Numbered from the stretch's first letter, positions 22,301 to 49,393 are shown. The stretch: DNA of 64,000 bases from an uncultured Fibrobacteraceae bacterium (GCA_964545545.1 CAZJGK010000001.1:35375-99374), one strand, 5' to 3'. The notes: a model not told the origin generated them from the sequence alone. Made by a program: numbers and translations.

Positions 22301-22853
22301 GGGATCCCTGGATGGGCTCACCTGGCAACCGGTGGACAGCGCTTGGGATTGCCGCGAATACAACGACTGGCTGAACGCCTTCAACGGCGGCCTGTCGGGC
22401 ACCGCAGCCATGTTCCACAACCACACCATCAACCTGAACAACACCTTCAACACCGGTGACGTGATCCTGCTGAGATTCCGCCTGTTTGCCGATGGTTACG
22501 TGACCGGTTGGGGCTGGGCCATCGACAACCTCAGCATCACCCCCCACGGGGTGTCCGGCGCCGGCGACACCCCGCGCCCGGTCACCCTGGCGCAGAATTA
22601 CCCCAACCCGTTCAACCCCATGACGACGATCTCCTTCAGCCTGGCAACCCGCAGCCCGGTCAAGATGCAGATCTTCGACACCCGCGGCCGGCTGGTGCGC
22701 ACCCTGCTCGACGAGCAGTTCAGCGAGGGCCGGCACTCCGTGGTCTGGGACGGCAAGGACAACCAGGAACGCCCATCCGCGACCGGCGTGTACCTCTACC
22801 GCCTGACCGCCGGGACCACCGTGCTGCAGGACAAGATGACGTTGATCAAATAG
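19350..22853 (+). CDS. Large secreted BNR/Asp-box repeat beta-propeller protein (sortilin/GH74-like architecture) with a T9SS C-terminal sorting domain
   Basis: Signal peptide MKRIVLSTSVLGAVLLVGLCLIVG. About 10 Asp-box repeats (STDGGSSW, STDHGATW, STDGGIDW, SIDAGQTW, SLDGGMTW, STDFGGSW, STDGGATF, TTDQGASW, SLDGGATW). The C-terminus ends MQIFDTRGRLVRTLLDE...GVYLYRLTAGTTVLQDKMTLIK. Confidence 0.85.
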   Translation: MKRIVLSTSVLGAVLLVGLCLIVGQGPTDQPSTWFQNRHAQLENELQHAAPGSDRAFKYQMKLDRLDAYKEGRPQPGFPDEFARVLYEMKIPSDRTTPEYTPGYQSRALAKAPRRQYTDKTITWTPRGPGNVAGRARGIIVDPDDPSGLTWFIASVGGGVWKTTDGGSSWQVLTDNVPNLAVQSLAMAASDHDIMYAGTGESFFNVDTMNGNGILKSTDHGATWFQLVSTLSDVRFNNISRIIVSPTDPNLVLASATTGSYKQTISATSSIFRSTDGGIDWTEVYNNPSNQIQQIIADPTDFSIQYACVKNYGVLKSIDAGQTWSPSRNGITNTAGRFEMAISPLNNTYLYAVSEGSSDAILWTSWDSGFTWNQTYENGGTEPNWLGTQGWYDNTIICSPDTPTIVYVGGTELYKIQLDAVGSTNRTSTPMASYSFPHPDHHCLQIIQPSGGGWFLLGTNDGGLTRTASQESGFTMPINGMVTTQFYGVDKMPGGSAYVGGMQDNGTWRSPVDATASSPWAPQIGGDGYETDWNFDDPLKIMGGYQFNGLMRSLDGGMTWEAADNGLGDTGSSAAPFITKIGQSDARPDVVFAVGSQGVWRSTDFGGSWSLSTTPSGDWGGLSSFQDVRVSQADPDIVWAGSRMDATGSILISTDGGATFTATTDYTSVTMGRISGLATDPVSSSTAYVLFSYATRPKILKTTDQGASWADISGFGTGSVSTNGFPDVAVYDLMVWPNDPNRIWVGTEIGLVESLDGGATWALANNGLPAVGIWQIRTVEDQVVVATHGRGIWTTTDPALVTGKTFNPLLANLFQSPTGTMTIDMNLRSAYDSTQVYVDGAKIQTYPANTALQQETIEVPVVANGTRNVYVRGFKAGSTYDSVTRTLDVFALSQPQFTYANSLDNGSDWAMTEFSIQTPGGFSNPALHTTHFYTNNSSPVAMLTVPVSISSQTDLSFDEIAIVEPGDPGSVYGDSGFWDYVTVEGSLDGLTWQPVDSAWDCREYNDWLNAFNGGLSGTAAMFHNHTINLNNTFNTGDVILLRFRLFADGYVTGWGWAIDNLSITPHGVSGAGDTPRPVTLAQNYPNPFNPMTTISFSLATRSPVKMQIFDTRGRLVRTLLDEQFSEGRHSVVWDGKDNQERPSATGVYLYRLTAGTTVLQDKMTLIK

Positions 22854-23373: not shown

Positions 23374-24411
23374 ATGACCGAATTCCGCAGCGGCCAGCCC
23401 GCCCCTGAAGCCCACCGAGCCCTGAAATCCTCCCTGCAAACCATGGCCAAGGCCAAGCGGTGCGCCGTGCTCTGGTTCGGGGACATCCTTGAGCGCAAAC
23501 TCTACCGGGAGCTCGGCTACAGTTCGATCAACCAGTACGCCAGGCAGGAGCTGGGGTTTTCCTCCAGCCGGACAGGCGACTTCCTGAACATCTGCCGCAA
23601 GTTGAAGGAGTTGCCAAAGGTGAGGGAAGAGGTGGCTTCAGGGCGCCTGGGCTACACGGCGGCGCGGGTGTTGGTGACGGTGGCGGATCAGGGCAACGAA
23701 GGGGCATGGCTGAAGGTGGCGCAGCAGGTTCCCCGGCGGGAACTGGAGCTGGCCGTGAAACGGGCCAAAAAGGAGGCGGTCGACAGCAGATCGGGGCAGA
23801 CCTCATTGATACCGAGGAAAGCAAGCCGGCCGGCCGCCGTCGTTCCCGTTCGCCTGAGCCTGGAATTGTCGCCGACCCAGTTCGCCCGCTACGAATCTCT
23901 CTGGGCGCAGATCCGCAAAACCGGCGGAGTTTCGGCCGACAAGGGAGAAGCCCTCCTGGAAATCATGGCCTCGTTCCTGGGCCGAAGTTCCCCCCGGGGG
24001 GATCCTCCCCGGGCCGCCAAAGCGCCGGTACAAATCCATATTCACCAGTGTCCGGACTGCGCCAAGGCCTCCGTGCAAACAGGTAAGGGCGAACTGGCCA
24101 TGGGCAATGCCGAACGGGACCGCGCCCTGTGCGATGCCATGATCAGCCGGGAACACGGGCGCAACCGATCCGCCATTCCCCCGGCCACCCGCCGTGGGGT
24201 TCTGGCCCGCGATCGGCACCGATGTCAGAATTCCGGTTGTGGCCACACGCAGTTCCTGGAGGTGCACCACAGGATTCCGCGATCCCGGGGGGGATCAAAT
24301 GATCCGGGCAATCTCCTGACATTGTGCTCTGCATGCCATCAGCTGTTGCACGAACAGGTGTTGCAGGGGATCGACGCAGGGCCGCTGGCGAAGGTGGGTT
24401 CGGGGCCGTAA
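23374..24411 (+). CDS. DUF222-HNH endonuclease-domain protein
   Basis: HNH motif LEVHHRIPRSRGGSNDPGNLLTLCSACH. The N-terminal region resembles the DUF222 family of actinobacterial 13E12-repeat HNH proteins. AAGGGAG RBS. It is preceded by about 450 bp of AT-rich sequence. Confidence 0.85.
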   Translation: MTEFRSGQPAPEAHRALKSSLQTMAKAKRCAVLWFGDILERKLYRELGYSSINQYARQELGFSSSRTGDFLNICRKLKELPKVREEVASGRLGYTAARVLVTVADQGNEGAWLKVAQQVPRRELELAVKRAKKEAVDSRSGQTSLIPRKASRPAAVVPVRLSLELSPTQFARYESLWAQIRKTGGVSADKGEALLEIMASFLGRSSPRGDPPRAAKAPVQIHIHQCPDCAKASVQTGKGELAMGNAERDRALCDAMISREHGRNRSAIPPATRRGVLARDRHRCQNSGCGHTQFLEVHHRIPRSRGGSNDPGNLLTLCSACHQLLHEQVLQGIDAGPLAKVGSGP

Positions 24412-25570: not shown

Positions 25571-26026
25571 TCAGGTTTCCCGACGCAGCATCAAGAGATG
25601 ATCGATGCCGCACTCGCTGAAAACTTCTCCTTCCCTGATGAAACCGAACTCGTTGTAGAATTCCTCAAGATAGACCTGGGCATGGAGCTTGAACCCGCGG
25701 GCTCCGCGCAATCGCGCCTGGTCCAGCAGGAACTGCACAATCTGCCGGGCAATACCGCGGCCGCGCCAGCGGGGCCTGACGGCGATGCGCTCCAGTTTCG
25801 CCCAACCGTCCGGCAACATCCGCAAACGCCCCGCGGCCACCGGCTGGCCCTCGACTTCTCCCAGGACATGGACGGCCTCCTGTTCGTAGCCGTCGATCTC
25901 CCCGGCCCAGTCCACGCCCTGTTCCTCGATGAAGACGATGCCCCGCACGACCATCACCTTCAGGATGTCCTGTTCGCTGGTGGCCAGGTGAATTTCCGCC
26001 GGCGCTTTGTCGCCCGTTGGTATCAT
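25571..26026 (-). CDS. GNAT-family N-acetyltransferase
   Basis: Internal start MIPTGDKAP with AGGAGG upstream. GNAT motif RPRWRGRGIARQIVQFLLDQARLRGARGFKLHAQ. Confidence 0.75.
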   Translation of the reverse strand: MIPTGDKAPAEIHLATSEQDILKVMVVRGIVFIEEQGVDWAGEIDGYEQEAVHVLGEVEGQPVAAGRLRMLPDGWAKLERIAVRPRWRGRGIARQIVQFLLDQARLRGARGFKLHAQVYLEEFYNEFGFIREGEVFSECGIDHLLMLRRET

Positions 26027-26087
26027 GCTACAGTTAACCTCCTGCTCATTAGGCAATGATAACGATCCGGGGAGTGAAAGGCACCTT

Positions 26088-27248
26088 ATGTCCCTCATCG
26101 AATTCAAAAAGATCCAGCCGGGGCTCCATGTTTTCGCCTGGAAACTCGGCTCGGTGGGCCTGGTGTGGGGCCCCCGCGGTATCCGCCGGGTTGAACTGGG
26201 AGGACATGATTGCAACCCGGTCACCGCCCGGCTGGTATCCCATTTCCCGGACCTTCCTCCGCTCCAGAGGGCCCCCGCCCCCGTGGCGGCCTTGGTGGGG
26301 CGCCTGAAAAGTCTGGCTGCCGGCAAAGCGGACCAGCTGCTGGATGTGCCGGTGGATCTGGACGGATGCTCGGCGTTCTCCCGGGCCGTTTACAGCGCCC
26401 TGCGCAAAATCGGTCCCGGCAAGGTCACGACCTACGGTGAGCTGGCGGCCATGGCCGGCCGGCCGGGCGCCGCCCGCGCCGTGGGCCGCATCATGGGCGC
26501 CAACCCCGTGCCCCTGATCGTGCCCTGCCACCGTTGCCTGGGCAGGGATGGCTCCCTCACCGGGTTTTCCAGCACGGGCGGCATCGAATTGAAGGCCCGC
26601 CTGCTGCACTTCGAGGGTTACGCCCGCAACCCGGAGCACGCCCGGGGCATCGCCCATCTGCGGCGGCGTGACCGCATCCTGCGTCCGGTCATCGATGCCT
26701 TCGGCCCCTACCTCGCTGTTCCCGACAAACCCGGGCCGCCCTACGACACGCTGGTCAGCGCCATCGTCCATCAGCAATTGTCCCTCAAGGCCGGGCGCAC
26801 CATCGCCGGTCGCGTGCGCGATCTCACGCCCGGACCGCGATTCCCCACTCCGCAACAGATGCTGGCCCTGGATCCGCAGAAGCTGCGCGCCGCGGGCCTC
26901 TCGGGCCAGAAGGCCGGTTATGTGCGGGATCTGGCCGCGCGCGTCGGTGACGGACGGCTGAACCTGCGCTCCCTGAACCGCCTGAGCGATGAGGAGGTGA
27001 TCGCCACCCTGACCACCGTCAAGGGCATCGGCGTGTGGTCGGCGCACATGCATATGATTTTCCAGATGGGGCGTCTGGACGTGTTTCCGGTGGGGGATCT
27101 GGGGGTGAAAACCGCCGCCGCTCGGCTTTACGGTCTGGGTGAAAACCCGACCGCCCGGCAACTGGAGCAGGTGGCCGAAACCTGGCGCCCCTTCCGCAGC
27201 CTGGGCGCGTGGTACCTGTGGCGGTCCCTGGAAGCGGGGGGAATGTAG
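26088..27248 (+). CDS. Bifunctional methylated-DNA-protein-cysteine methyltransferase (MGMT/Ogt) fused to a DNA-3-methyladenine glycosylase II (AlkA-like, HhH-GPD)
   Basis: N-terminal half carries PCHRC (VPCHRCLGRDGSLTGFSSTGGIELKARLL). C-terminal half has the HhH-GPD helix-hairpin-helix (TLTTVKGIGVWSAHMHMIFQMGRLDVFPVGDLGV). I place the start at the internal ATG MSLIEFKK. Confidence 0.8.
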   Translation: MSLIEFKKIQPGLHVFAWKLGSVGLVWGPRGIRRVELGGHDCNPVTARLVSHFPDLPPLQRAPAPVAALVGRLKSLAAGKADQLLDVPVDLDGCSAFSRAVYSALRKIGPGKVTTYGELAAMAGRPGAARAVGRIMGANPVPLIVPCHRCLGRDGSLTGFSSTGGIELKARLLHFEGYARNPEHARGIAHLRRRDRILRPVIDAFGPYLAVPDKPGPPYDTLVSAIVHQQLSLKAGRTIAGRVRDLTPGPRFPTPQQMLALDPQKLRAAGLSGQKAGYVRDLAARVGDGRLNLRSLNRLSDEEVIATLTTVKGIGVWSAHMHMIFQMGRLDVFPVGDLGVKTAAARLYGLGENPTARQLEQVAETWRPFRSLGAWYLWRSLEAGGM

Positions 27249-31994: not shown

Positions 31995-33257
31995 ATGGAA
32001 ATGACAACAGCGCGAACTTTCCTGACGATGGGGACCTTGACCCTGGCCATGCTTGCCCTCCCTGTTGTGAGCGCCGATGCCGGCCAAGTCGTCCAGGTCC
32101 ACGACCAAACCGTCGTGCGCAACCTTAAACCCGCCTTGCCGGCGGTGGACCTGAAGCTGGAAGAACTCTGGCGCCGCGGAGGCGAAGGCGACGACGTGAT
32201 GATCGGCCTGCCGGTCGAGGCGCTGGCCGACGAAGCGGGGCGCGTCTATCTGGCCGACCAGCAACTCTGCCGGGTTTTCGTCTTCGGTCCCGATGGCGAG
32301 TTGACCAAGCCCCTCAGCCGCGAAGGAGACGGCCCCGGCGAGGTTCGCAACCCCGTGGACCTCGTGCACTTGCCTGACGGCACCTTCGGCATTGCCGAGT
32401 TCTTTCCCGGCAAAATCATCAAAGTGACCGCCGACGATCTTCCGGCCGGGGAGATCACGGTCGATGTGAGCGGCGGACAGACCGGCGGCTTCACCATGCA
32501 GACCATGGTCGAAGCCTGGGGCAATCATTTGCTGGTGGCGGGATCGCGCTCCCTGCCCCAGGACAAGTTTACCGAACGCACCCATTTCCTGGCCGCCATC
32601 GACCAGCAGGGCCGGCAGACCGTGCGCTACATGGAGCAGGTATCCCGCATCCAGCGGCCCCACACCGTGGTGCACGAAACCGATTTCCTGCCCGCCTTCC
32701 CCCTGGCCAGCGCCTTGGGGCCGGATGGCCGGGTTTTCACACCCCACGACCGCGAACACTACGCGGTGAACGTCTTCAATGCCGACGGTACCCTGGACCG
32801 GATCATCGAACGACCGGATTTCCAGCCCTGGAAACGCAACAAGCGCGACCTGCGCCGCATCAGGGCTCTGTTCCAATCCTGGGCCGGCGCCAACCCCGAA
32901 ACATGGCCCCGGTTCGACCTCAAAGACACCGAACGCGCCATCAACACCCTTCACATCGACGGCCGGGGCCGATTGTGGGTGCAGCACAGCCGCAGCAATC
33001 GTGACCAGAAGGACGGCGTCTTCCTCAGCCTCGATCTCTACGACGACCAGGGCAACTGGCAGCGCGAAGTGCGCCTGATCTGCGAAGGCAATCCGGTCAG
33101 TGACGGGGTGCGCTTTCTGCGGGACGGGCGGATTCTGCTGATCAGGGGGTTTGTCACGGCGCGGCTGGCCTGCCTCGGGTCCGGCACGGCCACCCTTGGC
33201 GAGGATGATACCGATTCCATCGAGATCATCTGTTACAAGTTGCCCGATTTCAGTTAA
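31995..33257 (+). CDS. Secreted beta-propeller-like hypothetical protein
   Basis: Signal peptide MEMTTARTFLTMGTLTLAMLALPVVSADA. Repeated VYLAD.../GPDG... segments suggest NHL/SGL-like blades. No catalytic motif recognised. Confidence 0.55.
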   Translation: MEMTTARTFLTMGTLTLAMLALPVVSADAGQVVQVHDQTVVRNLKPALPAVDLKLEELWRRGGEGDDVMIGLPVEALADEAGRVYLADQQLCRVFVFGPDGELTKPLSREGDGPGEVRNPVDLVHLPDGTFGIAEFFPGKIIKVTADDLPAGEITVDVSGGQTGGFTMQTMVEAWGNHLLVAGSRSLPQDKFTERTHFLAAIDQQGRQTVRYMEQVSRIQRPHTVVHETDFLPAFPLASALGPDGRVFTPHDREHYAVNVFNADGTLDRIIERPDFQPWKRNKRDLRRIRALFQSWAGANPETWPRFDLKDTERAINTLHIDGRGRLWVQHSRSNRDQKDGVFLSLDLYDDQGNWQREVRLICEGNPVSDGVRFLRDGRILLIRGFVTARLACLGSGTATLGEDDTDSIEIICYKLPDFS

Positions 33258-34651
33258 TCGTGGGGCAGACTGCCCCGGGCCGAGCGGAAGTACGCGAACG
33301 GTGTCTCGAACAGGAAGTTCGATACGCGCGAAGTGTAGATGTCCGCGTGGCGCTCCACGAAATCGGCCAGATAGCTCTTGTCGTTCCCCGCGCGCATCAG
33401 GGATCCCCAGTGGACATTGCCGGTCTGGGCCGAGGCGCGGGCCAGCGGAGCGAGGACCTCGTCCAGCGCCTGCAGCTCGGCGCGCAGTTTTTCCAGGCGA
33501 GGCTTCAGGGATCCTGCCCCCTGCCCCCGTTGCAGGCGCAACCGCATCTGCGCGTAGCGCCGTTCCAGGATTCCTTTGCGACTCATGAGGGTCTCCAGCT
33601 CGGCGGCCTGGTCCCGGAAGGCGTAGGCTGCCTTCAGGTCGTTTTCCAGTTCCCGGACGACCAGCGCCGTGCGCCAGCGCATGGTGCTCTTGGTCGCGTG
33701 CACATCCCCGAAGAAATGATCACCCACATAGAGGATACGTTCGCCGGTCAGTCCCAGGGCGGCTTCCACCGTCGCGGCGTTGCCGCCGAAATAGATCGCG
33801 CCCGCCTCCAGTTCCCCGCTGACGGGTTTCAACAGCCCCTCGTCGTCCACGACTTCCAGGATCGGGCTGCGGCTGGTGAAGAAGTCGGGCTTGCGGGCCG
33901 AGACGATGATCAGGTCGAACAGGTCCCGCCAGGTCATGCCCTCGGGCAGATGAGGGTCGAAAGCGTAAGTCATCAACTGGCGGCTGTAGGCCCAGTCCGA
34001 ATTGGTGATCAGCATCAGCTTCTTGCCGGCCTGCTTCTGGTCCAGCAGGGCTTCGGCGGTCTGTGGATCGCGGTCCACATAGCGATCCAGGTCGGCCAGG
34101 ATCTCCGCCTTGAGCAAGCCCTCGGAATGGGCGCGGTCGATACTGGCGCGGACACGCTTGTAGAGATCGCCGTAGTCCCCCAACATGGGCAATTGCCCGG
34201 CATCCCACAATTCCACCAGCTGGGCGAAGAGGCAGGCTTCGCTCAGCGAGAACAGCGTGCTCAGAAAAATGAACCGCGCTTCGTGATGGTCCACCACGAT
34301 GCGGGAGTAGAGTTTTCTCTGCGCCTCGAAATCCATGGGTGCCGTGCCGTGGAAGGCGCTCTTGACGAAGCCGAAGCGGTTGACCTTCAGGAGATTCCCC
34401 GTTTCCAGATCGACGATCAACCCCTGGATCATCATCTCGGGATCAAAGCTCAGACCCTCGACCGGCCAGCCTTCCCGCAGCAACTGCTCCCGGGCGTGAC
34501 GGAAGGCCACGGCCTCCCACTCGACCACCTTGTACTGGATCAGCGTGTAATCCATGTCGTAGCCGATGGCTCCCAGCGAGCGCATGTTCAGCGTGCGATT
34601 GCAGAAGATTCCACGCTGGGGCGCGCCTTTGGGAAAAAGAAAGTCCGACAT
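33254..34651 (-). CDS. HAD-superfamily 5'-nucleotidase, cytosolic cN-II-like (HAD-IG)
   Basis: DMDYTL (DxDxT) motif near the N-terminus. Length about 465 aa. Conserved KLMLITNS and GDHFFGDV (motifs III/IV). Confidence 0.7.
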   Translation of the reverse strand: MSDFLFPKGAPQRGIFCNRTLNMRSLGAIGYDMDYTLIQYKVVEWEAVAFRHAREQLLREGWPVEGLSFDPEMMIQGLIVDLETGNLLKVNRFGFVKSAFHGTAPMDFEAQRKLYSRIVVDHHEARFIFLSTLFSLSEACLFAQLVELWDAGQLPMLGDYGDLYKRVRASIDRAHSEGLLKAEILADLDRYVDRDPQTAEALLDQKQAGKKLMLITNSDWAYSRQLMTYAFDPHLPEGMTWRDLFDLIIVSARKPDFFTSRSPILEVVDDEGLLKPVSGELEAGAIYFGGNAATVEAALGLTGERILYVGDHFFGDVHATKSTMRWRTALVVRELENDLKAAYAFRDQAAELETLMSRKGILERRYAQMRLRLQRGQGAGSLKPRLEKLRAELQALDEVLAPLARASAQTGNVHWGSLMRAGNDKSYLADFVERHADIYTSRVSNFLFETPFAYFRSARGSLPHD

Positions 34652-34714
34652 GGTATGCGTTTCTCCACGGGTTTGGGTACGCACCCAATATTACATGGAA
34701 AAGGGGATGCCCGC

Positions 34715-36400
34715 CTAGATGGAAACCGGGATTTGCAGACTTTCGATGGCCTGGATGGCCTGCTTGAGGATGATCGGCTTGCCCAGATGCAGGTCCATGC
34801 CCGCCTCCAGGCACCGCCGGGTACTGTCGCTGTCAGCGTCGGCGGTCAGGGCGATGATCGGAATCTGCGCCAGGTGGTCAGTGCGGTCGCGCAGCAATCG
34901 CGTGGCCTCCAGCCCATCCATGACCGGCATGCGGACATCCATGAAGACCAGATCGAAAGCGCCGTGTTCCAGTTTCGTGATGGCCTCTTGGCCATTGACC
35001 GCAAACTCCGGCGTGATGCCGACCTTGTGCAGCAATTTGCCCATGACCACCTGGTTAACCGCATTGTCCTCGGCTACCAGCACCTTCAGGTCGAAACGCG
35101 GCAAAGTCCCGGGCTGAGCGGCCTCTATCTCTGCCACGACCGCCGTCGGCATGGCGAAGGTCACGGAAAAAGTCGAGCCGACGCCAACGGTGGATTGGAC
35201 CACAATGTCCCCGCCCATTTTCCGGGCCAGGTGGTGACTGATAGCCAGGCCCAGCCCCGTGCCGCCGAAGTTGCGCGTCGTGGACTCGTTCACCTGCTCG
35301 AATTGTTCAAAAATGGCCGCCAGGCGATCTTCCGGGATCCCGATACCCGTATCTTCTATGCGCAGAGTGATCATGGCCTGTTCACCGGGTTCTTCGGAAA
35401 CCTCAACGTTCAGGGAAACGCCCCCGGCCTCGGTGAACTTCACCGCGTTGGAGACAAGGTTCAGCGCGATCTGCCGCACCCTGACCGGGTCACCCAGAAA
35501 TCCGCGGGGTGCATCGGCGGGATACCGGAAATCAAGCGAGAGTCCCCGGGCCACCGCCGACGGCCGCAGGATCTGCTCCACGTCCTCCAGTACGGTATGC
35601 AGATCGAAGGGAATCGCTTCAATGGCCATCTTGCCCGAGGTAATCTTCGAGAAATCGAGGATGTCATTGACGATGTCGAGCAAGGAGGATGCCGATCGCC
35701 GCAGGATCTCGAGGTCGCGGCGCCCCTCGGAGTCGATATTTGAATCCTCAATGACCTGGGCCATACCCAGCACGCCATTCAGGGGAGTGCGGATCTCATG
35801 ACTCATGTTGGCCAGGAACACACCCTTGGCCTTCTCCGCGGCCTGGGAGTTCACGAGCTCCGCCTGCAGCTTGCTGTTCAACGCTCCGAGCCGGTTCAGG
35901 ACCGTGAGGAAGAACGAAGGCAGCATCAGGATTCCCCACCAGAGCCCCATCCCCATGAGCAGATTCTCCTGCCAATAGTGGTTGAACCTGAGAACCAAGC
36001 CGAATTCCACGAAGCCCATCGTGGCCGACGCCAGCAGCGTTCTTTTCCCGAACCGAATACCATAACCGACGATCACCCAGAGAAATACCGGATAGAAGAA
36101 CGACCCGAATCGGGCCGCGAAATAGAAAGCCAGGGTTGTGGTCGTGATGTCCATGAACATGGTCACATAGATGCGGGACGGCCGGCCACCCGGCTTCCTG
36201 GTCAGGTACTGATGCCAGAATACGGAAAAAATAAAATGAACCAGAATGATGGAAAGTCCATAAGTCAGGGATCGACTTAGATGCCCGTCACGAATAAGAT
36301 TGAAGGAACCCAATAAAACGAATGTGGTGGAGGATATGCTCAGCCGGCTGATGGACTGGTTTCGCTCCTCACGTCTGCGCAATTCCTGGGATTGGTTCAT
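34715..36400 (-). CDS. Hybrid sensor histidine kinase / response regulator (membrane sensor, HisKA, HATPase_c, REC)
   Basis: Five or six N-terminal TM helices. H-box ANMSHEIRTPLNGVLGM. G-boxes GGTGLGLAISHHLARKMGG. REC domain KVLVAEDNAVNQ...DLVFMDVRMPVMDG. GAGGA RBS. Confidence 0.85.
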   Translation of the reverse strand: MNQSQELRRREERNQSISRLSISSTTFVLLGSFNLIRDGHLSRSLTYGLSIILVHFIFSVFWHQYLTRKPGGRPSRIYVTMFMDITTTTLAFYFAARFGSFFYPVFLWVIVGYGIRFGKRTLLASATMGFVEFGLVLRFNHYWQENLLMGMGLWWGILMLPSFFLTVLNRLGALNSKLQAELVNSQAAEKAKGVFLANMSHEIRTPLNGVLGMAQVIEDSNIDSEGRRDLEILRRSASSLLDIVNDILDFSKITSGKMAIEAIPFDLHTVLEDVEQILRPSAVARGLSLDFRYPADAPRGFLGDPVRVRQIALNLVSNAVKFTEAGGVSLNVEVSEEPGEQAMITLRIEDTGIGIPEDRLAAIFEQFEQVNESTTRNFGGTGLGLAISHHLARKMGGDIVVQSTVGVGSTFSVTFAMPTAVVAEIEAAQPGTLPRFDLKVLVAEDNAVNQVVMGKLLHKVGITPEFAVNGQEAITKLEHGAFDLVFMDVRMPVMDGLEATRLLRDRTDHLAQIPIIALTADADSDSTRRCLEAGMDLHLGKPIILKQAIQAIESLQIPVSI

Positions 36401-36713: not shown

Positions 36714-37913
36714 ATGAACATCATCGTCTTCAACTGCGGCAGTTCCTCCCTGACTTACAGAGTTTATAGTTCCGAGAATTGTGACGACCTGCGGACTCTG
36801 CTCAAGGGCAAAGCCCACCGGGTGGGCGTCAAGGGGACCGAGCCGTCTTTTATCCAGCATGAGCATGAAGGAACCATCGACAGGCGCGAAGTCCAGATCC
36901 CGGATCACGCGACGGCGGCCAACCTGATCCTCGACAAGGTTGGCGAGTTGGGGATCGATCTGCATTGCATTGGCCATCGCTGGGGCCACGGCCTCGGCCA
37001 ATTCACCACCACATTTCTGAGCACGTCGGTGCTGGAGCAGATGAAACTGACCGTGCCCTTGCTCCCGATCCATCATCCGGCCATGTTGGATGTGATCTCG
37101 ACCTGCCGACGACGATTTCCCCACCTGCCGGATTATGTGACGACCGACAACGCCTTCCACGCCGGCCTGCCGGCCTGCGCGTACACATATGCGATCCCCA
37201 GGGACATGGCTGCCGAGTACAAGTTTCGCAAGTATGGTTTCCACGGACTTTCCTACCAGTATGTGGTGGCCGCCACCAGCGAGTACCTGGAGCTTCCCCT
37301 GGAACGACTCAAGATAATTGCCTGCCATCTCGGCACAGGCGGGTCCAGCGTGGCCGCGGTGCGGGACGGCTCGTCCATTGACACCTCGATGGGATTTTCC
37401 GGGCTGTCGGGCCTGCTCATGAGCACCCGCGCCGGTGACATCGACCCCATGCTTGCGATCTACCTGATGGTGGTCTTCGATCTGAGTTCAGGCGAGGTCA
37501 TCGACCTTTTGAACAAGAAAAGCGGCCTGTTGGGTATGTCGGGCTTTTCCAGCGACATTAGGGACATCATCAAACTCATCGCCAGCGATGAAGAAGCGCG
37601 CTTGGCCTTCGATATGTACGTGCATCGGGTTAAGAAATACATCGGGAGTTACTGTGCTGCTCTCGGTGGATTCGATGTTCTGGTCTTTACCGACGATATC
37701 GGCCAGCACAACTGGCTGGTGCGGGAAAAAGTCTGCCGGGATATGGCGTGGTGCGGCCTGGAGCTTGACGAGGATGCGAATCGGGAAACGGCCACCGAGG
37801 GAATCCGGCAGGTTAGTACGCCACAGTCCAGGGTTTGTGTGTTGGTCGTTCCGACTGATGAGGAGCGCATCATTTGCCTGGAAGGCCTCAAGCTGATGGG
37901 GGGTCAACCATGA
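36714..37913 (+). CDS. Acetate/propionate kinase-family protein (ASKHA). Near-canonical but lacks the GGIGEN motif.
   Basis: FNCGSSS, IGHRWGHG, DNAFH, KYGFHGLSY, IACHLGTGGS, IDTSMG and STRAGDIDP all match AckA motifs. VFTGGIGEN is replaced by VFTDDIGQH. Confidence 0.85.
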   Translation: MNIIVFNCGSSSLTYRVYSSENCDDLRTLLKGKAHRVGVKGTEPSFIQHEHEGTIDRREVQIPDHATAANLILDKVGELGIDLHCIGHRWGHGLGQFTTTFLSTSVLEQMKLTVPLLPIHHPAMLDVISTCRRRFPHLPDYVTTDNAFHAGLPACAYTYAIPRDMAAEYKFRKYGFHGLSYQYVVAATSEYLELPLERLKIIACHLGTGGSSVAAVRDGSSIDTSMGFSGLSGLLMSTRAGDIDPMLAIYLMVVFDLSSGEVIDLLNKKSGLLGMSGFSSDIRDIIKLIASDEEARLAFDMYVHRVKKYIGSYCAALGGFDVLVFTDDIGQHNWLVREKVCRDMAWCGLELDEDANRETATEGIRQVSTPQSRVCVLVVPTDEERIICLEGLKLMGGQP

Positions 37914-39001
37914 TCCTGCTGACCCAGGCCACGCCCGAGGCCTTGAAATGCTGTCAGGTGCAGGACGGCGAACTGCTGAAAACGCTGCACAAGGATGGCG
38001 GCGCCGGCTTGGGTCCGATCTTGTCGGAGCTGGTGGAGGGCCAGAGCATTGATGCTGTCGCGCATTTCGTAGGCCACGGCGGCGCGGAATTCGACCGGTC
38101 CGTTACCCGGCTTCTACCCGGCGATCTCTCGCCGCTGGAACGATGCATCCGGTACCAACCCGAGTGCAACGCCCGGACTTATGAGACGGCGCGCTATTTC
38201 GCCGCGCAGTTGCCGGGAAGCCCACAGTTCGTCTGCTGTGATACGGGTTGCTTCAGTTCGTTGCCGGGTGTGGCGAGCAACTACGGGATTCCCCGGGAAC
38301 TGCGCCAACGCGGTCTGCGACGATTCGGAGGCTATGGTCTCTGCCACGAGCGGGCCTGGGAGCGTACCGTATCCCTTCGCGGCGGCCGGGTTCGGCGGCT
38401 TGTCAGTGTCTACCTTGGCAACACCACCAACGTGGCCGCCATGCGGGACGGCCTCCCCGTGGAGACAACGATGGGCTTTACATCCGTTGAAGGGATTCCT
38501 TCCGACCACGCCTGCGGCGATATCGACCCCACCATCCTGGACCTGCTCTTCCCCAAGGGAATAAGCATCTCCGAAATCACCGGGATCCTTACGACCCGCA
38601 GTGGCCTTACCGGTTTGATGGGGAGGGACACCAGCTTCCGGGACTTGATGCGAGGTAGGGGCCAAGACAGCGACGGCGGTTATGCGGAAGTCTGGGACCT
38701 TCTGCTCTACCATGTTCAAAAGAATATCGGGGCGTTCGTCGCCTCCCTGGGCGGAGTGGACGCCATCGCGTTTTCGAGCGAATATATCCAGGAGTGCGCG
38801 CCGTTCATCGACGAACTTGCCGGGCGCCTGGCGTTTCTGGGTTTGAAGCATACCGATGTGCGGGGGGACGAGAGCGACATCCGCGACATTTCCGCAGCGG
38901 GTTCGCGTGTCGGTGTCGTCTGCCTGCATTACGACAAATGGAAGATCATGGCGGAATTGGTCATGGCTTCGATTAACCGGGAGGTGCAAGATGTCCAATG
39001 A
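37910..39001 (+). CDS. Degenerate acetate-kinase-family paralogue (probable pseudo-kinase)
   Basis: Its ATG overlaps the upstream TGA (ATGA). It aligns with AckA along its length (HFVGHGG, CDTGCF, GYGLCH, YLGNTTN, TTMGF, ACGDIDP, IAFSSEYIQE), but the N-terminal NxGSSS loop, R91, H180, R241 and the GGIGEN residues are all substituted. Confidence 0.7.
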   Translation: MILLTQATPEALKCCQVQDGELLKTLHKDGGAGLGPILSELVEGQSIDAVAHFVGHGGAEFDRSVTRLLPGDLSPLERCIRYQPECNARTYETARYFAAQLPGSPQFVCCDTGCFSSLPGVASNYGIPRELRQRGLRRFGGYGLCHERAWERTVSLRGGRVRRLVSVYLGNTTNVAAMRDGLPVETTMGFTSVEGIPSDHACGDIDPTILDLLFPKGISISEITGILTTRSGLTGLMGRDTSFRDLMRGRGQDSDGGYAEVWDLLLYHVQKNIGAFVASLGGVDAIAFSSEYIQECAPFIDELAGRLAFLGLKHTDVRGDESDIRDISAAGSRVGVVCLHYDKWKIMAELVMASINREVQDVQ

Positions 39002-39785
39002 CAAAAAGTTCTTGGTCGATGTCGGCCTGGGAGGCCTGGTTTTTCCGATCACGGTCCTCTCCAAGGGGAAGCCCGAGGGGCAGCAGACCGTGGCCACCAT
39101 TTCCATCAGTGCCCGGATCATGCATGAGTTCGAGGCCTTCTGGATCGACAGGTTCATCCAGATCCTGCACAAGCACCGCGACAACATCGGCCAGACATCG
39201 TTCAAAACAAACATCAAGGATTATGCGACCGCCCTGGGTGCCGAAGCGGTCAGCATCGAATTCAGCTACCCGTTTTTTATCGAGAAAACTACGCCCGTCT
39301 CCGGAGAGAAATGCTTGGTCAAGTACAACTGCGTTCTTTCCACCAAGCTTCCCACGCTTGAGAAGGTGCCGCCGGTCTTCCTACGCATTGATGTTCCGGT
39401 GCTGACGACCTACCCCCAGAGTCAATCCGGCCTGCCGTACGGTCTGTTCGCCCAGCAGAGCGTTGTGGCGCTGGAGACCCACTCCTTTACCGATCTCTTC
39501 GTGGAAGATCTGGTCGAGATCGTTGAGTCACATGCGCTTTCCCCTGTCTATTCGTTCCTTACCGATGAGGACCAGGCGTTCCTCATCAAGAAGCTGCACA
39601 CGGAATCCCAGACAAGCGTTATGATGCTCGATGGCGTCCGGCAGAAAATGGCGAGCAACAAGGACATTGACTGGTTCTCCGTGCGTTGCGCCAATTTCGG
39701 CATGTTGCATTCCTACAACACCACCATCGGAGCCGAGAAGAGCCTCTGGATACCATACAGCGGCGGAAGTGATGACGGCATCTAG
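38991..39785 (+). CDS. FolE2/MptA-family (GCHY-1, DUF198) T-fold protein lacking the conserved CPC(S)KE metal-site cysteines
   Basis: GGGAGG RBS. It overlaps the ack2 end by 11 nt. FPITV...TVA...SIEFSYPFFIEKTTPVSG resembles the FolE2 signature (SFPWFFERK.P). Where FolE2 has LCPCSKE, this protein has TTYPQSQS. Confidence 0.6.
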   Translation: MSNDKKFLVDVGLGGLVFPITVLSKGKPEGQQTVATISISARIMHEFEAFWIDRFIQILHKHRDNIGQTSFKTNIKDYATALGAEAVSIEFSYPFFIEKTTPVSGEKCLVKYNCVLSTKLPTLEKVPPVFLRIDVPVLTTYPQSQSGLPYGLFAQQSVVALETHSFTDLFVEDLVEIVESHALSPVYSFLTDEDQAFLIKKLHTESQTSVMMLDGVRQKMASNKDIDWFSVRCANFGMLHSYNTTIGAEKSLWIPYSGGSDDGI

Positions 39786-39840: not shown

Positions 39841-41265
39841 CTATCGGGACCACTCGGCCGTGATCACCTTGATCATGTTGGTCGGCATCTTCTGGGCGAA
39901 CGGCACCCCTGCGGTCAGCACCACCGGATCCCCGGGGCTGACAAAGCCACCCTGCAAGGCCCTGTCCAGGGCGACCTGCTCAAGTTTTTCGACGGTTTGG
40001 GCCAGATCGATTTCCACCGGCACCGCGCCGAAGGTCAGGGCCATGCGCAGGGCCGTTTCACGTTCAGGCGTCAGGGACAACACAACCTGCCGCGGACGAT
40101 AACGGGCCACCCGCAGGGTGGTGTTGCCGCTGCGGGTGCAGGTCAAGATGGCGGCGGCTCCGATATCCTCGGCCATCTTCACGGCCGCATGAGCCACGGC
40201 GTCGCCGAAACTGAGTTTCTGGGACCCCGCGAACTTCTCGGTCCAACCTTCGTAATCCAGCTGCCGCTCCGTATCGGCGGCGACCCTGGACATCACCTGC
40301 ACCGCCTCGACCGGATAGGCGCCTATGGCCGTTTCCTCGCTCAACATGATGGCGTCGGTGCCGTCGTAGATGGCGTTGGCGACATCGGTTACCTCGGCGC
40401 GCGTCGGCCGCGGGCTCTCCACCATGGACTTGAGCATCTGGGTGGCCGTGATCACCGGTTTGGCCGCGGCGTTGGACCGGGCGATGATCATCTTCTGGGC
40501 GCGAGGCACCTGCTCCAGGGGAATCTCCACCCCCAGATCGCCCCTGGCCACCATGATTCCGTCGGCCACGACGATGATCTCCTCGATGTTCTCCAGGGCC
40601 TCGAACTTCTCGATCTTGGCGATGAGCGGTGTGTCCTTGCCCGCGGCCTGGATGACGTGTTTGGTCGTTTCGATATCGTGGGCCGTGCGCACGAAGGACA
40701 AGGCCACGAAATCCACGCCCTGCTGCAGGCCGAACTCCAGGTCGGCACGATCCTTGGCCGAGAGAATCGGCGCGTTGAGCGTACGGCCGGGCAGGTTGAT
40801 GCCCTTGTGGGAGCCGAGCATCCCGCCGGTGACCACGCGGCAGTTGATGTCCGTTGTGCTGGCCGACTCGACCTGCAGTTCCATGGCTCCGTCCGCCAGC
40901 AGGATGGCGTCTCCGGCACGCACGCTGCGCGGCAGGTCGTGATAGGTGAGGCCGACTTCCTCCCCGCTGCCGGGAACTTCCCGATTGGTCAGCACGAACC
41001 GGGCCCCCTCCTTGAGCTCGATCTCGCCGGGGGCCATAGCCCCGGTGCGGATCTTGGGACCGGCCAGATCCTGCAGGATGGCCACGGGCGCCCCCATTTT
41101 CCGGGACACTTCCCTGATGTCCTTGATGAGCTCAGCGTGCTCGGCGTGGGTGCCGTGGGAAAAATTCAGGCGGCATACATTCATGCCCGCCTCGATCAGT
41201 CGGGCCAGTATTTCCGGATCCCGGCTGGCCGGTCCGATGGTGCAGATGATCTTGGTCTTGATCAT
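39841..41265 (-). CDS. pyk: Pyruvate kinase
   Basis: MIKTKIICTIGPAS...NFSHG...; MVARGDLGVEIP; 474 aa. Confidence 0.9.
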   Translation of the reverse strand: MIKTKIICTIGPASRDPEILARLIEAGMNVCRLNFSHGTHAEHAELIKDIREVSRKMGAPVAILQDLAGPKIRTGAMAPGEIELKEGARFVLTNREVPGSGEEVGLTYHDLPRSVRAGDAILLADGAMELQVESASTTDINCRVVTGGMLGSHKGINLPGRTLNAPILSAKDRADLEFGLQQGVDFVALSFVRTAHDIETTKHVIQAAGKDTPLIAKIEKFEALENIEEIIVVADGIMVARGDLGVEIPLEQVPRAQKMIIARSNAAAKPVITATQMLKSMVESPRPTRAEVTDVANAIYDGTDAIMLSEETAIGAYPVEAVQVMSRVAADTERQLDYEGWTEKFAGSQKLSFGDAVAHAAVKMAEDIGAAAILTCTRSGNTTLRVARYRPRQVVLSLTPERETALRMALTFGAVPVEIDLAQTVEKLEQVALDRALQGGFVSPGDPVVLTAGVPFAQKMPTNMIKVITAEWSR

Positions 41266-45562: not shown

Positions 45563-45940
45563 TCAGTCGTCGGCCTTGGCCGCCATCTTCATCCTCGGCA
45601 ACAAACTCAGGTCGAAAATCTTGGTCTTGTTGGTCCGCACCAGGCGGATTTCCTCGATCACCCGTCGGATCCCGGCCAAGGCCGAAGTAACCTCGAAATT
45701 GCCGTACCTGAAGCCGAAATTGCGCAGGGTGCGCATGGCCGAAACAAGCTTCTGTTCCGCATGGGCGTACTTCTGGTCCGACAGGTACATGAACCCCTCA
45801 CAGGCCTCGTTCAGACCCATCCAGAAAGCCTCGTCGGATCCTGAGGCGCCGGCCAAGCCCTCCGCCGCCTGATGTGCGGCGTCGGTGAATTTCCTGCCGT
45901 TGAAGGCGGTGATGGTCCGGTTGAGAGCTTCATCGTTCAT
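45563..45940 (-). CDS. Hypothetical protein (about 125 aa), co-directional with def
   Basis: Internal ATG at 45940 with GGAGG 6 nt upstream. Product MNDEALNRTITAFNGRKFTDAAHQ... I reject the track's N-terminal extension. Confidence 0.5.
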   Translation of the reverse strand: MNDEALNRTITAFNGRKFTDAAHQAAEGLAGASGSDEAFWMGLNEACEGFMYLSDQKYAHAEQKLVSAMRTLRNFGFRYGNFEVTSALAGIRRVIEEIRLVRTNKTKIFDLSLLPRMKMAAKADD

Positions 45941-47719: not shown

Positions 47720-49393
47720 CTATTTGATTATGATGCATCGCTTCCACTCTGTCCGGCCATGGGCCTCCAGCGAATAGAGATAGATGCCGCTGGGAAGTCC
47801 CTGGGCATCCAGGGTCACGTGCTGCATCTCCTTGGCTGAAGCCTCGCTGGCGACCGTGCGCAGGCAGCGGCCGCGGACATCGTACAAACGCAGGGTCACT
47901 TCGCCGGCCTCGGCAACCCGGTAGGAAATCCGGGTTGAATTCCGGAAGGGATTGGGCGCGTTCTGGTCCAGTTCGATCATCTGTTCGGAGACCTTCGGTC
48001 CATCCGGTACGGCGGAAACATCGATGAAACCCGCTCTCTGCAGGCCGGCCCGGATATCCGCGTTCCCCATCATCCGGTCCCAGATGCCCCCGTTGAGATA
48101 GTTCTCGATCATGATGACGATGGGACCCTCATCGATCCCCAGGTAGTCCGAGCCCCACCAGAACTGGGTGAGGTTGAACGCATCCTTGAAACCATACTTC
48201 CCCCAGAGCATGGAGCCGTAGTTGTCGTACATGTTATGCAGAGCGGGCAGGACGATCTCGGGCGCAAAGGCGATGGAACCCGCCGCCGCGGTGGGGGTGA
48301 TCGTCCCGTTGTCGTTCTGGGCCGGGGGGGCGCCGTGGGCCAGGTAGCCGCCGGGATCGTCCGAGGCCGTCAGGCCCCACAGGTCCGCGCCGTAGCCGGC
48401 CCAGCCACTGGGATTGGCGATGCAGTATTCCCGGGCGGCAATGGTCGCCCGGCGGGAATTCTCGAAATAATCGATGCCGTGCAGACGCATATACGCGTCC
48501 CTCAGGTCACGAAAATCAATCCAGCAGTGGGAATACTGATGGCCGAACAGCGGCGGAAAGTTCACATAGATCTGGCCGTATTGCAGGCTCCAGTTGTAAC
48601 CGCTCGTCCAGTAGGCCCAGGTATAATCGGGGACCGGATGGGTGGGCGAACCCAGGGCCAACAGGTACAGGACCATGGCCTCGTTGTACCCCACCCAGGT
48701 GCCGTAACCGCTGAAACCCGTGTTCGGCTTCCAGCCCATGCGGATGCCGTTGCCGCCGTTGCGAACGAACTCCCAGTCCACGCGGTAGTACAGGGAATCC
48801 GAAAGGGCCCGCACCTCGACCTCGCCGGGATCCTCGCCGGTGAAGTACTGCTTGGCGTCGATGACACCGGCCATGAGCAGGGCCGTGTCGATGGTTGACA
48901 ATTCCGAGCTCCAGGTTCTCAGGCCGGAATTGATATCCAGGAAATGGTAGAACAGGCCCTTGTAGCCGTTCGTATTGTATTCGGTGTCGCCCTGGGGTCC
49001 GTTCCACAGGGTCTGCATGCCCAGCAGGATGCGGTCGCGTCCCTCGCTGCGGGATATCCAGCCGTGGTCGATGGCGATGCAGATGGCGGTGATGCCGAAA
49101 CCCTGGGCTGCGATGCTGCAGGCGGACCCGGGCTGGCTGCGGTCCCGGATCAACCCATTGACCGGATTGGCCTCGTCCCAGAAGTACAGGAAGCCCGTGC
49201 GCTGCAGGCTGTCCAGCAAGGCCTCGTCCGTCAGGGATTTCAGGGCGGGAACTGTCAGGCTACGCTGCGAATTCCCGGCGAGGACAGGGCCGGCCGACGA
49301 CCCGATCAGGAACAGGGCGACCAGCAGTCCCAGCCTGATCCTGCTCCCCGATAGACCGTGCATCCCACCATGATATGTCGTTTGCTTGATCAC
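47720..49393 (-). CDS. (alpha/alpha)6-type glycoside hydrolase, glucoamylase-like (GH15/GH144-related, tentative), with a T9SS C-terminal sorting domain
   Basis: GTG start with GAGGAG upstream, then a signal peptide. FLYFWDEANPVNG resembles the glucoamylase general-acid region LWEEVNG. The C-terminus ends GIYLYSLEAHGRTEWKRCIIIK. The family assignment is from memory only. Confidence 0.7.
   Translation of the reverse strand: MIKQTTYHGGMHGLSGSRIRLGLLVALFLIGSSAGPVLAGNSQRSLTVPALKSLTDEALLDSLQRTGFLYFWDEANPVNGLIRDRSQPGSACSIAAQGFGITAICIAIDHGWISRSEGRDRILLGMQTLWNGPQGDTEYNTNGYKGLFYHFLDINSGLRTWSSELSTIDTALLMAGVIDAKQYFTGEDPGEVEVRALSDSLYYRVDWEFVRNGGNGIRMGWKPNTGFSGYGTWVGYNEAMVLYLLALGSPTHPVPDYTWAYWTSGYNWSLQYGQIYVNFPPLFGHQYSHCWIDFRDLRDAYMRLHGIDYFENSRRATIAAREYCIANPSGWAGYGADLWGLTASDDPGGYLAHGAPPAQNDNGTITPTAAAGSIAFAPEIVLPALHNMYDNYGSMLWGKYGFKDAFNLTQFWWGSDYLGIDEGPIVIMIENYLNGGIWDRMMGNADIRAGLQRAGFIDVSAVPDGPKVSEQMIELDQNAPNPFRNSTRISYRVAEAGEVTLRLYDVRGRCLRTVASEASAKEMQHVTLDAQGLPSGIYLYSLEAHGRTEWKRCIIIK

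Follow-up and report, generated by a model that had tools for sequence, protein, structure and literature searches.

A conserved gene trio encoding a predicted Entamoeba-type acetate kinase, a catalytically degenerate paralogue and a remodelled FolE2-fold protein

Organization of the locus

We analysed a stretch of 64,000 nucleotides (nt) from an uncultured Fibrobacteraceae bacterium (GCA_964545545.1, CAZJGK010000001.1:35375-99374), hereafter the window, and focused on three consecutive plus-strand genes, hereafter genes 1, 2 and 3 or, together, the trio (Table 1). Gene 1 encodes an acetate kinase homologue whose nucleotide pocket resembles that of the Entamoeba enzyme, gene 2 encodes a paralogue that lacks the catalytic motifs, and gene 3 encodes a protein with the T-fold of the GTP cyclohydrolase FolE2 and a remodelled active site. 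In the trio, an acetate kinase is joined by two fixed partners without precedent, a pseudokinase and a T-fold protein.

The open reading frame (ORF) of gene 1 runs from ATG 36714 to TGA 37911-37913, that of gene 2 from ATG 37910 to TGA 38999-39001, and that of gene 3 from ATG 38991 to a stop codon at 39783-39785. Genes 1 and 2 overlap by 4 nt and genes 2 and 3 by 11 nt, in agreement with the first-pass annotation of this sequence, which had proposed three coupled, overlapping genes. The start of gene 1 is assigned to ATG 36714 rather than to the upstream GTG 36657, because the N-terminus of the family reads MNIxVFNCGSSS. G-rich, Shine-Dalgarno-like runs lie 4-6 nt 5′ of both internal starts, those of genes 2 and 3.

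The same arrangement recurs elsewhere. The junction of genes 1 and 2 is overlapping in every one of the 36 related loci measured (−1 to −23 nt), and the spacing of genes 2 and 3 in these loci is mostly −14 to +15 nt, the linkage of gene 3 being looser than that between genes 1 and 2. This recurrence argues that the coupling is not due to chance. A scan of the window with Rfam reported no riboswitch or other RNA, and a scan for promoters and terminators gave signals at background level only.

Table 1. Coordinates of the trio, its junctions and other features of the window
Feature	Position	Strand	Description
Gene 1	36714..37913	+	399 amino acids; predicted Entamoeba-type (EhACK-like) acetate kinase, probable catalytic subunit
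Gene 2	37910..39001	+	363 amino acids; catalytically dead acetate kinase paralogue (pseudokinase)
Gene 3	38991..39785	+	264 amino acids; FolE2-fold bimodular T-fold protein, remodelled active site
ATGA start/stop overlap, genes 1 and 2	37910..37913	+	GGGGGG upstream at 37898-37903
Junction of genes 2 and 3	38979..39001	+	GGGAGGTG; Shine-Dalgarno-like run 38979-38986, gene 3 ATG 38991, gene 2 stop 38999-39001
Hybrid histidine kinase	34715-36400	-	
cN-II-type 5′-nucleotidase	33254-34684	-	
Pyruvate kinase	39841-41265	-	convergent
ORF	33260-35743	+	827 amino acids; antisense to the 5′-nucleotidase and histidine kinase genes; third-position G+C 0.64
Sortilin/BNR protein	19350-22853	+	1167 amino acids; FlgD_ig C-terminal domain
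HNH protein	23374-24411	+	345 amino acids; C-terminal HNH endonuclease domain
Fusion protein	26007-27248	+	6-O-methylguanine-DNA methyltransferase DNA-binding domain fused to HhH-GPD glycosylase domain
tRNA-Ile (GAT)	45835-45920	+	sole tRNA in the window
Glycoamylase	47720-49393	-	Por_Secre_tail (type IX secretion system sorting domain)

Gene 1 retains the acetate kinase core and has an Entamoeba-like nucleotide pocket

Gene 1 matches the Pfam family PF00871 over its full length (E = 2.7e-104; 349 bits, cut-off 22) and scores 351.6 bits against TIGR00016, above the cut-off of 293.4 for acetate/propionate kinases. Its top match in the PDB is the acetate kinase of Entamoeba histolytica (EhACK; EC 2.7.2.12; PDB 4H0O), with an E-value of 2.1e-94, and the ATP-dependent enzymes of Thermotoga and Methanosarcina rank behind it. 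A neighbor-joining tree places the gene 1 family in a single clade with EhACK and four stand-alone bacterial sequences, separate from conventional acetate kinases, and EhACK shares 42-51% identity with the gene 1 family versus 37% with conventional acetate kinases. Pairwise ratios of nonsynonymous to synonymous substitution rates (dN/dS) in the gene 1 family are 0.10-0.26.

To compare residues, we aligned 39 members of the gene 1 family with MtACK and EhACK, and residues of genes 1 and 2 are given in MtACK numbering. Residues N7, S10, S12, R91, H123, D148, H180, R241 and E384/E385 are kept in gene 1 and are invariant in the family (39/39). The first-pass annotation had stated that each member of the trio lost canonical catalytic residues, which is borne out for genes 2 and 3 (see below) and not for gene 1, where the whole core is present and the changes are those of the nucleotide pocket of the pyrophosphate (PPi)-dependent Entamoeba enzyme. 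Specifically, the changes in gene 1 lie in the nucleotide site and comprise K14T, N211T together with an inserted Gly (HLGTGGSS), and G239S. In addition, the ADENOSINE motif FTAGIGEN is replaced by FTDDIG(Q/V/L)(H/R/Y)N in the family (FTDDIGQH in the window protein), and the equivalent of G331 is Asp in 38 of the 39 members.

The signature of ATP-dependent acetate kinases, Gly331-Ile332, Asn335 and Asn211 without the extra Gly, is thus absent from gene 1, which has D330, D331, H335 and T211 followed by the Gly. The features of the EhACK type are present, namely the extended PHOSPHATE2 loop GTGGSS with its second Gly, and T-D-D, with an Asp before the position of Q323. EhACK itself has the GTGGSS loop, K14T, G239S, an Asp at A330, a side chain at G331 and an intact core. 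The extra Gly and the Asp have been reported only in Entamoeba acetate kinases and a few bacterial sequences, while Gly331 is invariant in every ATP-dependent acetate kinase (Dang & Ingram-Smith 2017, PMC5517563). Among those bacterial sequences, the putative PPi-dependent enzymes of Anaerolineaceae resemble gene 1 in that their ADENOSINE motif is the D-D variant and their PHOSPHATE2 loop is extended; they were reported as single genes, partner genes being unmentioned, whereas gene 1 has two fixed partners.

Conventional, ATP-dependent and homodimeric AckA of the Pta-AckA pathway shares with gene 1 the PF00871 domain and acyl-phosphate chemistry, and the acetate pocket is of the same type (F179; in most family members, positions 93/122/232 are V/I/P). 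The conventional system differs from the trio in that FTAGIGEN is replaced in gene 1 and in the heteromeric, pseudokinase-containing arrangement that the gene sequences imply for the trio. The window protein itself carries V93G, N124H and P232G, which are minority states found in about 5-13 of the 39 family members and with which the acyl pocket may be larger and better suited to propionate or longer substrates.

Gene 2 is a conserved pseudokinase

Gene 2 matches PF00871 with an E-value of 4.9e-40 (138 bits), over profile positions 69-387 only, the first ~68 positions being missing, and its score of 122 bits against TIGR00016 is under the cut-off of 293. All 39 members of the gene 2 family lack the PHOSPHATE1 loop and carry a conserved PxPPxLRW motif in its place. 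R91, H180, R241 and E384 are replaced across the family, and the ADENOSINE motif is gone; in the window protein the substitutions are R91F, H123C, H180Y, R241A and E384K. The catalytic and phosphate-binding motifs of acetate kinase are thus lacking from gene 2, in which only the fold persists, and its description in the first-pass annotation as a degenerate acetate kinase paralogue is upheld. D148, N124, H184 and C242 are retained, and E122 and W385 are newly conserved. The model of gene 2 predicted by AlphaFold2 has a confident fold resembling that of the superfamily of acetate and sugar kinases, Hsc70 and actin (ASKHA), with a predicted local distance difference test (pLDDT) score of about 95.

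The gene 2 family is conserved at 32-44% identity, its pairwise dN/dS values are 0.10-0.48, and the ORF is intact in dozens of lineages. These values rule out that gene 2 is a decaying pseudogene, part of an outcome that the first-pass annotation had named as refuting its proposal, and, as judged from sequence, gene 2 is a real pseudokinase under purifying selection. Internal stops, one in each ORF, were seen in the gene1-like and gene2-like ORFs of an Ignavibacteriota metagenome-assembled genome (MAG; L022) and in one further gene2-like ORF (L037), all otherwise well conserved; they could reflect sequencing error, recent pseudogene formation or recoding.

Gene 3 has the FolE2 fold and a remodelled pocket

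Gene 3 matches PF02649 (GCHY-1) with an E-value of 3.7e-28. It does not reach the cut-off of the FolE2 equivalog in NCBIfam (NF010200; 77.8 bits, cut-off 215) or that of MptA (TIGR00294; 13.1 bits, cut-off 220). The model predicted by AlphaFold2 (pLDDT 84.9; predicted template modelling score, pTM, 0.83) aligns in Foldseek with the FolE2 structures 8g8v, 8g6c, 3d2o and 2r5r with template modelling (TM) scores of 0.83-0.87 at 25% identity, and has the same bimodular T-fold. In a profile search of 1.84 billion representatives, the gene 3 family scores at least 250 bits and true FolE2 ~120 bits, with a few degenerate offshoots in between; the closest gene 3 relative lies in Krumholzibacteria.

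In Burkholderia pseudomallei FolE2, the metal ligands are Cys154, His166 and Glu208, and Cys156 and Glu250 are catalytic (PMC11573665). In gene 3 the three ligands correspond to Tyr141, Phe153 and Gln195, Glu250 to Gly237, and Cys156 to Gln143. Phe153 and Gly237 are invariant in the gene 3 family, and Tyr141 and Gln195 are conserved at 90% or more, while Gln143 is the residue of the window protein at a position that is variable across the family. The FolE2 pocket residues P142, Q155, S157, D194, N235 and H240 are retained, and the residue that we take to be the guanine-anchoring Glu of FolE2 aligns to Val210. Because its metal ligands and general base are replaced, gene 3 is not a GTP cyclohydrolase and, on its residues, cannot cleave GTP. 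Together with the profile match, the fold comparison agrees with the first-pass reading of gene 3 as a GCHY-1/FolE2-like T-fold protein without the catalytic site. The same annotation called the protein cysteine-less, which is incorrect, since C108, C114 and C233 are present and only the cysteines of the FolE2 CPC motif are missing.

Gene 3 is the most conserved member of the trio, with a mean top-residue frequency of 0.715 compared with 0.673 and 0.531 for the other two and with pairwise dN/dS values of 0.03-0.31. The likeness to FolE2 and MptA thus lies in the bimodular T-fold and several pocket residues, and the difference in the loss of the metal ligands and the base and in the addition of a conserved C-terminal tail, TEKSxWVPFSG, which is predicted to be disordered. 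Separately, H62, C108 and C114 are invariant and H60 is near-invariant; these four residues, none of which has a counterpart in FolE2, may jointly make up a functional or metal site of a new kind.

The trio is conserved across at least 12 phyla

Searching GTDB species genomes with gene 3 yielded 80 loci, or 82 non-redundant loci with the context loci collected earlier. The trio is contiguous and on one strand in 41 of the 82, with 49-59% identity for the gene1-like and 32-44% for the gene2-like proteins. It spans at least 12 phyla, its lineages being Acidobacteriota/Aminicenantes, Elusimicrobiota, Omnitrophota, Planctomycetota, Verrucomicrobiota/Kiritimatiellia, Sumerlaeota, Fibrobacterota, Ignavibacteriota, Bacteroidota, Spirochaetota, Myxococcota and Auribacterota. 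The order is gene 3-gene 1-gene 2 in Acidobacteriota and Polyangiaceae. When gene 1 was used to search metagenome contigs, all three genes were found in 47 of 53 informative loci, and on all 13 contigs that end early gene 2 is still present after gene 1. This co-inheritance supports the proposal of the first-pass annotation that the trio is a neofunctionalised, coupled module rather than a housekeeping ackA beside folE2. Gene 1 stands alone in four loci (L121, L129, L160 and L162), whose sequences are the closest to EhACK and resemble the Anaerolineaceae type.

Genes 2 and 3 are naturally fused in frame in a Candidatus Sumerlaeota MAG (P0242, 623 amino acids, L027:5921-7792). The fusion retains the internal Shine-Dalgarno sequence and ATG, and assemblies from NCBI, JGI and Logan contain it. 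A second joined protein, P0357 (483 amino acids, from the representative library), links gene1-like residues 1-~300 directly to the gene3-like sequence from residue 78 to its C-terminus; gene 2 is missing, and the protein probably arose by deletion or as a chimera of the assembly. Two JGI metagenome contigs, L149 and L150, have gene 1 and gene 2 matches that agree in coordinates, identity and score, yet gene 3 lies 0.5 kb downstream in L149 and is absent within 2.9 kb in L150, which suggests that it has been gained, lost or relocated at the level of strains.

Gene 3 also occurs beside conventional acetate kinase genes

Outside the trio, the contexts of gene 3 are varied. It forms pta-ack-gene3 operons in Nitrospinota (L003:4593-8786) and Phycisphaerae (L080:4855-7777), where the ack gene is of the conventional ATP type (GN-GSS, FTAGIGEN); the Nitrospinota operon has pgi, pmi, pgm, pfk, ldh and fba behind it. 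In nine loci from Geobacter-type MAGs (L035, L050, L053, L055, L061, L064, L065, L066 and L077), gene 3 lies just upstream of a cluster for an Ech/Mbh-type NiFe hydrogenase. Six of the nine (L035, L053, L055, L061, L065 and L077) have an aldehyde dehydrogenase gene just upstream of gene 3, and all of these except L077 carry conventional ack and pta 3-5 kb upstream of it. Its position behind pta-ack and beside ack and pta indicates that gene 3 is acetate-kinase-associated in a broader sense.

Neighbouring genes and the wider window

Surveys of the neighbourhood of the trio found no universally conserved fourth gene, and the flanks differ among relatives. The first-pass annotation had taken the histidine kinase and the 5′-nucleotidase beside the trio as a hint at nucleotide or pterin metabolism; both genes are real, but that inference fails, as the HisKA/HATPase_c and 5_nucleotid families are outside the 25 families that recur most beside the trio and also outside the recurrent neighbour clusters. 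The families that do recur beside it are those of pta, in 2 loci, and of conventional ATP-type ack, in 4 loci, which indicates that the module is additional to housekeeping Pta-AckA. In Acidobacteriota, the trio is preceded by a gene for an ADP-forming acetyl-CoA synthetase. PADLOC gave no match for any of the three proteins, and an anti-phage defence system was rejected as a candidate.

The window, with a G+C content of about 63%, contains several further features that are listed in Table 1. Among these, the glycoamylase with its sorting domain and the Sortilin/BNR protein with its FlgD_ig domain, taken together with the G+C content and the Krumholzibacteria relative of gene 3, suggest an organism of the FCB group. 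The low third-position G+C of the 827-residue plus-strand ORF makes it almost certain that this ORF is a shadow arising in G+C-rich DNA rather than a true gene.

Discussion

The explanation that we favour, with a confidence slightly short of even, is that the trio encodes a heteromeric, probably PPi-forming acetate kinase module of acetyl-phosphate metabolism together with a T-fold accessory protein. In such a module gene 1 would be the catalytic subunit, its acyl-phosphate and phosphoryl-transfer core being intact. Because its adenosine pocket is blocked by Asp in place of the invariant Gly and its PHOSPHATE2 loop is extended, gene 1 most likely interconverts acetyl phosphate plus inorganic phosphate (Pi) and acetate plus PPi, rather than using ADP/ATP; homology to the Entamoeba Pi/PPi enzyme likewise makes Pi/PPi its most likely substrates. 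Gene 2 would most likely replace the second protomer of the normally homodimeric acetate kinase and act as a scaffold or regulatory partner. Gene 3 would bind a different small ligand and would probably be an accessory partner of acetate kinases generally, with a regulatory role or a second activity at the acetyl-phosphate node. The module would operate beside, not instead of, conventional Pta-AckA in several genomes, and fermenting anaerobes would through it store the bond of acetyl phosphate as PPi. Coupling and conservation of the genes, their families, their residue patterns and the fold are established here, whereas the specificity for PPi, the heterodimer, the physical association and the part played by gene 3 are inferred. 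That the three products form a stoichiometric complex is plausible, the sole direct hint being the one natural fusion of genes 2 and 3.

Several observations weigh against this explanation. Gln323-Met324 and Glu327 of EhACK are not kept, being Asp-Ile and His in gene 1 of the window and D-I-H/R/Y in its family, and for the bacterial D-D variants the authors who described them left open whether the substrate is PPi or something else, possibly neither ATP nor PPi (PMC5517563). EhACK acts alone, so that it is not explained why genes 2 and 3 would be needed. In about 24 loci that have adequate flanks, gene 3 has no acetate kinase gene nearby, and the solo and trio proteins interleave in a tree with no residue that discriminates them, suggesting that gene 3 may have an autonomous function. 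P0242 is the only fusion lineage of genes 2 and 3 among the matches listed. In addition, the AlphaFold2 model of this fusion (pTM 0.64; linker and conserved C-terminal tail disordered), built from an alignment with few gene 3 rows, offers no evidence for a defined interface between genes 2 and 3.

One unlikely alternative is that gene 3 is itself a new enzyme, its remodelled T-fold pocket catalysing the formation or consumption of the acyl phosphate on which the kinase pair acts. It might be an alternative source of acetyl phosphate, or might modify a purine- or pterin-like molecule in a reaction that depends on an acyl phosphate; genes 1 and 2 would in that case provide or take away the substrate of gene 3. 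That gene 3 is better conserved than its partners, some 90 positions reaching 90% or more across phyla, fits an enzyme, as does the conserved pocket formed by Y141/P142, F153, Q155, D194-Q195, N235, G237, H240 and Y242; the substituted positions are themselves conserved, which argues for a functional pocket rather than decay. Gene 3 also recurs beside enzymes of acetyl-CoA and acetyl phosphate even without genes 1 and 2, and the source of acetyl phosphate for the Entamoeba enzyme is an acknowledged open question (PMC9983610). However, the metal site and base are gone and no catalytic residue can be named, Pta is encoded in several trio or gene 3 loci, so that a missing source of acetyl phosphate is not evident, and many solo contexts are unrelated to acetate metabolism.

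In another alternative, which we rate the same, genes 1 and 2 form a specialised kinase and gene 3 is a co-regulated protein of central metabolism that does not bind them. Gene 3 lies before the pair in some loci and after it in others (L009, L023, L048 and L060), is missing from the otherwise identical locus L150, and occurs solo in about 24 loci; the lack of a confident interface in the fusion model points the same way. Such independence sits poorly with the adjacency of gene 3 in 47 of the 53 informative gene-1-seeded loci, usually within a few nt of gene 2, with the natural fusion, and with the placement of gene 3 directly behind conventional ack in two phyla. Still less probable is that gene 1 is an ordinary nucleotide-dependent isozyme (for ATP, GTP or another nucleoside triphosphate) with a divergent pocket, and that genes 2 and 3 tune the choice of nucleotide. 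T-fold proteins classically bind purines, as this alternative would call for, but in gene 3 the HMSR motif of FolE2 is replaced and Val210 takes the place of the putative guanine-anchoring Glu, the Gly331 that is invariant in all ATP-dependent acetate kinases is Asp in gene 1, and gene 1 has an extended PHOSPHATE2 loop of a kind otherwise confined to EhACK-like enzymes. The pocket sequence alone is nonetheless not decisive, as pocket mutants of EhACK and of ATP-dependent acetate kinases kept their donor specificity (PMC5517563). The reading that database labels such as 'acetate kinase' and 'GTP cyclohydrolase FolE2' would support, a housekeeping ackA beside folE2 with a decaying ack pseudogene between them, is scarcely credible: in dozens of lineages purifying selection keeps gene 2 intact, none of the FolE2 catalytic residues is present in gene 3, whose score is well under the FolE2 equivalog cut-off, conventional acetate kinases are encoded in the same loci, and the trio is kept across phyla. 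On these grounds we regard it as refuted.

A stronger version of the favoured heteromeric module, which we consider doubtful though somewhat less so than the alternatives above, is that the three subunits form a new heteromeric enzyme in many uncultured anaerobic phyla. Such an enzyme would couple the turnover of acetyl phosphate to PPi or to another phosphoryl acceptor in the T-fold pocket, would constitute a hitherto unrecognised energy-conserving branch of fermentation, and would represent the ancestral context out of which Entamoeba obtained its orphan PPi-dependent acetate kinase.

The closest known systems each match the trio in part. EhACK differs from the gene 1 family in Q323-M324-E327 versus D-I-H/R/Y, and is a lone homodimer in a eukaryote, whereas gene 1 almost always occurs with a dead paralogue and a T-fold protein. 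The TsaD-TsaB-TsaE system combines an active ASKHA enzyme with a degenerate paralogue that lacks nucleotide and catalytic motifs and with an accessory protein. The resemblance to the trio is an analogy of architecture only, as the subfamilies and the chemistry are unrelated. Our literature search retrieved no description that links an acetate kinase with a FolE2-like protein, and none of the pseudokinase, with bacterial PPi-dependent acetate kinases described only in PMC5517563; the first-pass annotation had likewise known of no characterised pathway that pairs these families.

Among cultured organisms, the planctomycete Thermogutta terrifontis has two acetate kinases and no pta, and its genes THTE_1319 (ack), THTE_1320 (unnamed) and THTE_1321 (CoA-acylating aldehyde dehydrogenase) are co-induced 1.6-1.76-fold (PMC5673643). 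THTE_1320 may be a homologue of gene 2 or gene 3, which makes this organism a candidate cultured host of the module.

The Pi/PPi acetate kinase of Entamoeba is the only non-ATP acetate kinase characterised so far, and its physiological role and partner enzyme are unresolved (PMC9983610). Our analysis indicates that a bacterial sister family of this enzyme is common in anaerobic, mostly uncultured lineages, almost always with two fixed partners that are mislabelled in databases, gene 2 as 'acetate kinase' or 'hypothetical' and gene 3 as 'GTP cyclohydrolase FolE2/MptA family'. Correcting the latter label removes a folate-pathway mis-annotation, since the genomes concerned would otherwise be credited with a FolE2 that is not theirs, and gene 3 clearly exemplifies how a T-fold enzyme can be put to a new use once its metal site is lost. 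Being widespread, the module is of direct relevance to the biology of PPi-dependent acetate kinase. If it makes PPi from acetyl phosphate, the ATP/PPi bookkeeping would change in metabolic reconstructions for Elusimicrobiota, Omnitrophota, Planctomycetota, Acidobacteriota and others.

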